Of a stretch of DNA of 64,000 nt, positions 33,913 through 33,959 are shown piece by piece. Position numbers and translations under genes: made by a program. This DNA is from Candidatus Aenigmatarchaeota archaeon (GTDB taxonomy: Archaea > Aenigmatarchaeota > Aenigmatarchaeia > CG10238-14 > SpSt-28). Below the pieces are notes generated by a model that saw only the letters and a program-made list of their open reading frames with translations, had not been told where the DNA came from and did not search any database. The stretch spans positions 2,071 through 66,070 of the forward strand of contig JAWBNO010000002.1 of NCBI GenBank assembly GCA_039000725.1. The letters are read 5' to 3'. The stretch's first letter is position 1. Every line of letters begins with the position of its first letter.

Positions 33913-33959
33913 GTGTCGCCCAAGGCGGCGAATCATTTTATTCAGATGACCGCCTGAGA
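33913..33959 (-). other. BHB mini-intron 3 in 23S rRNA (47 nt, domain IV, near E. coli 1927)
   Basis: 4-bp helix GUCG/CGAC, bulges UAU and ACA, inner helix CUC-AGGCGG/CCGCCU-GGG. Removal gives GACCGUCGUAAAGUAGCG, the same length as the conserved GACCCUCUUAAGGUAGCG block. Confidence 0.7.

Follow-up and report, generated by a model that had tools for sequence, protein, structure and literature searches.

The locus described here raises two questions. What is the segment of 47 nt that interrupts one of the conserved blocks in an archaeal 23S rRNA gene, and does it carry anything beyond the signals for its own removal? The window, by which we mean the whole stretch of 64,000 nt that was analysed, has a G+C content of about 28% save for one block of 57%, and that block is the 23S rRNA gene (32702-35997, minus strand). 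The gene is a full-length match to Rfam LSU_rRNA_archaea with 2520 bits, and at 3296 nt it compares with a model length of 2987. It stands alone, as no 16S or 5S rRNA gene is found within the 64-kb window, and the rRNA genes are thus unlinked. Adjoining it is a gene for a PINc/KH ATPase, the 80%-identical homologues of which are named Candidatus Aenigmarchaeota, and the nearest 23S sequences (88-93% identity) are labelled Aenigmatarchaeota with one exception, a 5.5-kb contig binned as Infirmifilum. The original prediction of an AT-rich archaeon therefore agrees both with the base composition and with the nearest named relatives, and judged by those relatives the host is a thermophilic, AT-rich DPANN archaeon of the Aenigmatarchaeota. 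A synteny route gained no relatives, the many PINc/KH ATPase homologues (65-80% identity) being on contigs without an rRNA gene.

The covariance-model alignment separates GACCGUCGU from AGUAGCG by 49 nt, at a place to which the archaeal consensus gives 2 nt. Read along the minus strand, on which all parts of the gene lie, the order is GACC GUCG (UAU) CUCA GGCGG ... CCGCC U UGGG CGAC (ACA) AGUAGCG. The exon strand GUCG (33962..33965, E. coli 1922-1925) can pair with CGAC at the other end of the insert (33915..33918), giving a central helix of 4 bp between two bulges of 3 nt, UAU (33959..33961) and ACA (33912..33914). In BHB substrates the cut falls after the second base of each bulge. This puts the predicted 5' splice site between 33960 and 33959 and the 3' splice site between 33913 and 33912, and so delimits an intron of 47 nt, UCUCAGGCGGUCAUCUGAAUAAAAUGAUUCGCCGCCUUGGGCGACAC, from 33959 to 33913. 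On the exon side of the central helix is an outer helix, h, of ACC (33966..33968) with AGU (33909..33911), the latter opening the 3' exon block AAGUAGCG; it has 2 bp and a C.A mismatch in the window genome and 3 bp in relatives with GGU. On the intron side is an inner helix, h', of 4 bp, a bulged U and then 5-6 bp, which covaries across homologues; its 5' arm includes GGCGGUCA (33947..33954) and its 3' arm is GCCGCC, the bulged U and UGGG (33919..33929). By the covariance-model alignment the 5' exon contains helix 69 (33963..33981; E. coli 1906-1924), made up of GGCGG (33981..33977), the loop UAACCCUGA (33976..33968) and CCGUC (33967..33963).

Removal of the 47 nt restores the conserved block, the product GACCGUCGUAAAGUAGCG matching the consensus in length. 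The predicted ligated product, GACCGUCGUA|AAGUAGCG, has the length of the consensus GACCCUCUUAAGGUAGCG and departs from it at three positions (1922, 1925 and 1929). The original prediction is thus borne out in the coordinates of the insert (33913-33959), in the helix GUCG/CGAC with its bulges and inner hairpin, and in a product of conserved-block length with three substitutions. It is also correct in its site, given there as about 1927/1928, as alignment to E. coli K-12 rrlB (2904 nt) puts the junction at A1927|A1928. A central helix with four pairs out of four together with an inner helix of at least 4 bp has a background rate of 4.2e-4 per (site, length) combination in the 23S gene, and to find a BHB motif exactly at the insert that the model defines is thus not chance. 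The insert has no Rfam match up to an E-value of 10, and the group I intron ribozyme core (P3-P9) is absent from it by Rfam covariance models at E-values up to 10. There is also no homing-endonuclease ORF, as no ORF overlaps the region and 47 nt is too short to encode one.

For comparison, 185,579 species genomes were scanned once for a gap of 15-75 nt separating the helix 69 anchor from GTAGC, which gave 27 further loci with inserts of 30-62 nt at 1927/1928. At least 14 of these are named Aenigmatarchaeota; among the others are two Nanoarchaeota MAGs, a Bathyarchaeota MAG, a Desulfurococcales MAG and a Hestiella MAG. A second pattern, applied to metagenomes and lacking the TGACC anchor, was dominated by bacterial 23S genes with an upstream GGTAAC, and the useful sequences among the matches listed were L053, L073, L092 and L116. 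Two of the sequences carry labels that call for comment. The contig labelled Infirmifilum sp. (L026, JBEULP010000040.1, 5.5 kb) has a 23S gene 93% identical to that of the window with an intron of the same family, and is probably misbinned Aenigmatarchaeota DNA. A 34-kb contig labelled Thermococci (L015) is about 70% identical over the aligned part and has an intron of the same core type, and it may be DPANN DNA too.

In keeping with the original prediction, all 28 inserts, each of the comparison sequences having been chosen for an insert at 1927/1928, parse as an outer helix, a 4-bp helix, two 3-nt bulges and an inner helix. Minimum-free-energy folding yields no BHB, and the motif had therefore to be tested comparatively, which was done on a junction alignment of fixed register. 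In this alignment 90.9% of cells form standard pairs, against 24-42% when the 3' partners are slid by 1-3 columns. The score for covariation is 0.547, compared with 0.197 in shuffles, and none of 500 shuffles matched the observed pairing or covariation. Double changes are seen in 6 of 11 pairs, and in the inner helix at all four of the pairs tested. The central helix is paired in 98.1% of cells over 26 distinct sequences, with compensatory changes at two of its four pairs. These can be read directly at the exon positions. Where exon 1925 is U, its partner at the intron 3' end is G or A, and where it is G the partner is C; a G at 1922 faces C or U, and a C there faces G. Seventeen distinct sequences have ACC/GGU as outer helix, and the subtype to which the window belongs has ACC/AGU, with the C.A mismatch, so that by its sequence the outer side of the motif is relaxed in that subtype. 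DPANN lineages have forms of the endonuclease EndA that are tied to relaxed substrates (PMC5829648).

In the mature rRNA, exon bases 1922 and 1925 are part of the 3' strand of helix 69, and their covariation with the intron end thus documents a fold that is specific to the precursor. On this comparative evidence such a fold marks out a splicing motif; an expansion segment would have no reason to form an exon-intron helix that competes with mature helix 69. The BHB is not the fold of minimum free energy (96 nt of context, 37 C). A strand-swapped fold with the exon-intron duplex UGACCGUC/GGCGGUCA has -31.5 kcal/mol, helix 69 together with the intron hairpin has -30.4 kcal/mol and the best fold that contains the BHB has -23.0 kcal/mol, so that at this temperature the best alternatives are favoured over it by about 8 kcal/mol.

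We put at about 0.86 the probability that the insert is an archaeal BHB intron, lying between E. coli 1927 and 1928 and spliced by proteins; judged by its homologues it is one of a family of introns spread through DPANN genomes. The insert is shown, as are the motif and the conservation and covariation that go with it; that the RNA is cut and ligated, and in which order, is inferred. Before splicing, the 3' strand of helix 69 would part from its mature partner and exon GUCG would pair with CGAC at the intron end, the resulting 4-bp helix between the bulges UAU and ACA stacking on the intron hairpin. The tRNA-splicing endonuclease (EndA) would then cut past the second base of each bulge, and an RtcB-type ligase would join the exons to give GACCGUCGUA-AAGUAGCG and probably circularise the intron. 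Helix 69 would refold once the exons were joined. A motif search of the six-frame translation of the 64-kb window found none of EndA, RtcB, fibrillarin, Nop5 and L7Ae; the window does include an intron-containing tRNA, from which it follows that the organism needs splicing machinery.

Three other explanations of the insert have to be considered. The first is that it is a lineage-specific expansion segment, kept in mature 23S rRNA as an extra hairpin beside helix 69. The insert does form a stable hairpin, the fold of helix 69 plus intron hairpin beats the BHB fold by 7 kcal/mol, and the gene has two inserts without a clear BHB (34171..34132 and 33290..33239) that may be true expansions. We nevertheless consider this improbable, as the covariation of exon bases 1922 and 1925 with the insert's 3' end belongs to a helix that cannot coexist with mature helix 69, and as the two 3-nt bulges and the 4-bp spacing are held in 28 of 28 inserts despite very different interiors. 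The site is moreover in the subunit-interface core, where the archaeal consensus permits just 2 nt. The second explanation, to which we give a slightly smaller chance again, is an intervening sequence that is cut out without religation to leave a fragmented 23S rRNA, as in some bacteria. Fragmentation of rRNA is known in other systems, and excision from a BHB is in itself no proof of ligation. However, the exon ends rebuild the exact consensus block and a break beside helix 69 would hit a functional centre. In archaea, cleavage at a BHB is also coupled to ligation by RtcB, in tRNA, in rRNA introns and in the circularisation of pre-rRNA (PMC7714728, PMC3608112). Finally, an assembly artefact or a piece of an rRNA pseudogene is hardly credible: although the assembly is of metagenome type and public contigs are broken within the 23S gene, the gene matches the model over its full length and scores highly, the 47 nt are identical in two independent public assemblies/runs, and homologous inserts are present in 27 other genomes and in further metagenome contigs.

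The intron is not alone in its gene, which has five inserts relative to the Rfam model, three of them bounded by a BHB. The two further 23S introns that had been predicted do exist with exact BHB boundaries. One has 83 nt (33544..33462) and is discussed below, and the other has 94 nt (33119..33026), with GUCG/CGAU as central helix and an inner helix of 8-10 bp, and lies in the helix 93 loop at G2597|A2598. Removal of the 94 nt restores GAACGUCGUG|AGACAG, that is GAACGUCGUGAGACAG, and relatives carry 61-775 nt at the same site. The remaining two have no clear BHB: an insert of 40 nt (34171..34132) is a hairpin extension with a 3x3 internal loop, and one of 52 nt (33290..33239) is a hairpin in the helix 89 loop. 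Either could be a genuine expansion segment or an intron with a relaxed motif. When 17 related 23S genes were aligned with MAFFT, inserts of 30-150 nt and 700-860 nt appeared at more than 25 sites, and it is thus normal for this clade to have several ORF-less introns in a gene. The original prediction called three such introns in one 23S gene unusual, which was an overstatement. No published description of these DPANN mini-introns was found in our literature searches.

The rRNA itself has some peculiarities near these sites. The helix 69 loop, UAACCCUGA, has C at both E. coli 1915 and 1916, and most relatives have UAACUCUGA. The changes U1925-to-G and G1929-to-A are always found together in the 11 sequences of the window subtype, and this co-occurrence suggests a contact between 1925 and 1929 in the mature rRNA. 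The peptidyl-transferase-centre block (about 33314-33325) is GGGGGUAAUGG, against GGGGAUAACAG in the archaeal consensus and GGGGAUAAUGG in most close relatives, and the substitutions fall on normally invariant positions around E. coli 2448-2453.

With regard to the second question, 23 of the 28 introns share a core that consists of an invariant GUCA, one variable base, NYGA, 3-12 nt and RUGA, with G before GUCA in at least 90% of the 23. The sequence GRYGGUCA complements the invariant exon UGACCGUC (33970..33963), the loop and 3' strand of helix 69, over 8 bp, and in the window genome this antisense element is GGCGGUCA, which is also the 5' arm of the inner helix. The 8-bp duplex is part of the minimum-free-energy fold, and it is the RNAalifold consensus on the MAFFT alignment A2, from which this was the only helix obtained, the 3' halves aligning poorly. 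The three variable bases of the antisense change only in ways that preserve pairing, and the 3' arm of the intron varies freely. The idea of the intron hairpin as a duplicate or mimic of helix 69 was considered and rejected as a general rule, as in subtype-2 introns (e.g. L011) the 3' arm is not complementary to the 5' strand of helix 69. The antisense is thus the conserved feature and no by-product of a duplication of helix 69.

Always one base past GGUCA there is a box, in the window a D'-like CUGA (33942..33945), which AUAAA (33941..33937) separates from a C'-like AUGAUUC (33930..33936), and the two together could form a K-loop. The motif, here CUGA-AUAAA-AUGAUUC, is kept in 22 of the 23 core-type introns, where it can also be read as a plain hairpin, and its degenerate consensus is that of the D'/C' pair in the family of the 83-nt intron. 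L019 and L031 have, in place of the loop, a 4-bp hairpin and then UGU-GA, with canonical K-turn geometry and a switch from G-C to C-G at 4b-4n. NYGA...RUGA is the form of the archaeal D'/C' K-loop as defined in PMC7994747. Given a spacing of one base from GGUCA to the box, C1920 is the position that the N+5 rule picks out (the antisense being 8 bp at positions 2-9 and the exon invariant). Archaeal C/D-guided methylation has a hot spot in helix 69 (PMC4644070), and C1920 is 2'-O-methylated by TlyA in bacteria (PMC7317525).

Membership of the box C/D sRNA family was also considered for the 47-nt intron and rejected, as it is without terminal C and D boxes: hand inspection of this intron and its longer relatives found no terminal C (RUGAUGA) or D (CUGA) box at 10-14 nt from the internal boxes, and none in the circular form of the intron or in its exons. 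The antisense has 8 bp, compared with the 10-12 nt of box C/D guides. As a guide acting in trans, the 12 nt upstream of CUGA had targets in 23S rRNA no better than those of shuffled guides (30/200).

The 83-nt intron has the complete layout of an archaeal box C/D sRNA, closed by a stem of 13 bp. Its boxes are C, AUGAGAA (33530..33524), D', AUGA (33511..33508), C', AUGAUUA (33503..33497), and D, UUGA (33484..33481), with a 12-nt guide between C and D', a spacer UUUA between D' and C', and a second 12-nt guide, ACGGGGUAGCUU, before D. It is the sole match to a regular expression for the full architecture in the window, against 0.18 expected. The layout is kept in 11 relatives with a covarying terminal stem and is exactly absent in 5 others, and the central helix of the BHB has a compensatory change from CGGG/CCCG to CUGG/CCAG. 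The D guide (GRGGUAGCU) pairs with 23S rRNA at AAGCUACCUCG (33333..33323), about 130 nt downstream, and N+5 is then U2438. The best match of the D' guide overlaps the D-guide site (N+5 = G2446) and is no better than those of shuffled guides. In the literature that we searched there was no report of C/D sRNAs encoded by rRNA introns in archaea. Three other genomes (L017, L022 and L024) have an intron of 84-86 nt with the full C/D layout, in L024 AAUGAAG, 13 nt, AUGA, AAA, AAUGAUU, 13 nt, CUGA, at the site equivalent to about 33599 of the window, and this intron is absent in the window genome.

A tRNA with the anticodon CAU (29076-29177, minus strand), missed by a default ARAGORN run, has an intron of 29 nt at 37/38 (29140..29112). 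In it AUGAGC is antisense to G31-U36 and is followed one base later by UUGA-UAUA-AUGAU, which puts N+5 on C34; the BHB of this tRNA uses a different and weaker complement (UAAG). C34 is a known C/D-guided site in archaeal tRNAs (PMC7994747). The module NUGA-N3-7-AUGA[UG] occurs 21 times in the window, both strands included, or 1.6e-4 per nt, and three of the 21 are in the three BHB introns of 47, 83 and 29 nt (159 nt in total), one in each. One more is in the RNase P RNA (3627-3874, minus strand; motif at about 3748), as an NUGA-loop-AUGAG module, AUGAUUUAAAUAUGAG. Archaeal RNase P RNA binds L7Ae, and judged by its sequence the module there is possibly an L7Ae-binding K-turn or K-loop.

There are two main ways to read the conserved core of the 47-nt intron. 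We give a little under an even chance to the core GGUCA-N-NYGA...RUGA being a mere stable hairpin (UCAUC/GAUGA), inherited from a common ancestor and having no role as K-loop, protein-binding site or antisense. In most members UCAY and RUGA can indeed join in 4-6 Watson-Crick pairs, and L019 has a compensated version, UCAC/GUGA. By hand reading the 4b-4n pairing of the boxes fails in the window subtype, L116 has UUAA where others have UUGA, and in a single sequence an unbroken run of eight pairs with an exon close by is no rarity (about 0.2 by a rough estimate). However, a simple stem should covary, and GUCA is invariant in 23 of 23, matching the invariant exon UGACC. A hairpin would also put YGA in its loop, yet the G and the A are each conserved in at least 90%, and the spacing of 1 nt from GGUCA to NYGA never changes. 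Other points against it are the K-turn geometry of L019 and L031 with its switch at 4b-4n, and the finding of so infrequent a module in all three of the BHB introns and in RNase P RNA.

The other reading, which we regard as possible but doubtful, is that the 47-nt intron is a minimal, cis-acting half of a box C/D RNP that serves helix 69 as a guide or chaperone. Before splicing, the 5' arm GGCGGUCA would pair with helix 69 (UGACCGUC) and the adjoining CUGA/AUGAUUC K-loop would recruit L7Ae, Nop5 and fibrillarin. C1920 would be 2'-O-methylated, or helix 69 would be chaperoned without modification, and the RNA would then switch to the BHB fold for removal of the intron. The tRNA(CAU) intron in the window would act likewise on C34. 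The remaining probability goes to roles other than these, in protein binding or in folding of another kind.

What we have, then, is a well-supported and widely distributed family of DPANN mini-introns at the 1927/1928 hot spot, with unusually clean covariation between exon and intron. The larger point may be the cargo. The 83-nt sibling has the form of a full box C/D sRNA whose target lies in the peptidyl-transferase region of the rRNA that hosts it, and the 47-nt intron and the tRNA intron carry what looks like a stripped-down half guide. If this is true, then, taken with the full C/D layouts of the 83-nt intron and of the 84-86 nt intron of relatives, Aenigmatarchaeota would house part of their rRNA and tRNA methylation guides in BHB introns of the very RNAs that are modified, and archaeal rRNA introns would be vehicles for cis-acting modification guides, in parallel to the intron-encoded snoRNAs of eukaryotes. 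It would extend the single known archaeal precedent, the tRNA-Trp intron, and give a selective reason for the retention of ORF-less introns in reduced genomes. It would also provide a natural minimal substrate for study of the assembly of a methylation RNP on one K-loop, and of the order of guide pairing and BHB formation.

With regard to known systems, the element is of a known kind, a BHB mini-intron, but it is of a new family and its conserved module is unreported. Kjems and Garrett reportedly described small ORF-less BHB introns in the 23S rRNA of Staphylothermus marinus in 1991 (PNAS 88:439). Like those, the 47-nt intron has tens of bases, no homing-endonuclease ORF, a place in a conserved 23S domain and BHB boundaries, and in both cases splicing needs the exon to quit its mature pairing. 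It differs in having a DPANN host and not a crenarchaeote, and in belonging to a different sequence family. To our knowledge an internal module of antisense plus K-loop-like boxes has not been described for the S. marinus introns. Small 23S introns of this organism are also mentioned in PMC3608112. The large introns of crenarchaeal 23S and 16S rRNA genes (Desulfurococcus mobilis with I-DmoI, Pyrobaculum, Thermoproteales; PMC3608112, PMC4496867) share the splicing motif and the preference for hot spots in the rRNA core, but they have homing endonucleases and hundreds of nucleotides, whereas the present intron has 47 and no ORF. The archaeal group I introns at LSU 1923 and 1931 (Nawrocki et al. 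2018, PMC6125680) are in the same domain IV neighbourhood and are found in DPANN, including an Aenigmarchaeota record, and from these the 47-nt intron differs in lacking a ribozyme fold and in having boundaries of BHB type.

For the internal module the closest comparison is with guide RNAs. The intron resembles the C'/D' K-loop of archaeal C/D sRNAs (Nolivos et al. 2005; Gagnon et al. 2010; cited in PMC7994747) in the succession of NUGA, a short loop and RUGAxxx, in the potential for tandem G.A pairs and in having the antisense directly upstream of the D'-type box. Unlike those sRNAs it has no terminal C/D K-turn and its boxes are degenerate, and binding of L7Ae, Nop5 and fibrillarin is putative. 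The nearest precedent is the pre-tRNA-Trp intron of Euryarchaeota, which is reported to hold a box C/D guide for Cm34 and Um39 (Clouet d'Orval et al. 2001; summarised in PMC7994747). It too is a BHB intron with antisense to its own exon beside D-type boxes, and since in both introns formation of the guide duplex excludes the BHB, and the reverse, modification would in each case come before splicing. The pre-tRNA-Trp intron has four boxes and two 12-nt guides, compared with one D'/C'-like pair, a single 8-bp antisense and an rRNA host for the 47-nt intron, and it is the 83-nt intron that, like the pre-tRNA-Trp intron, has all four boxes.
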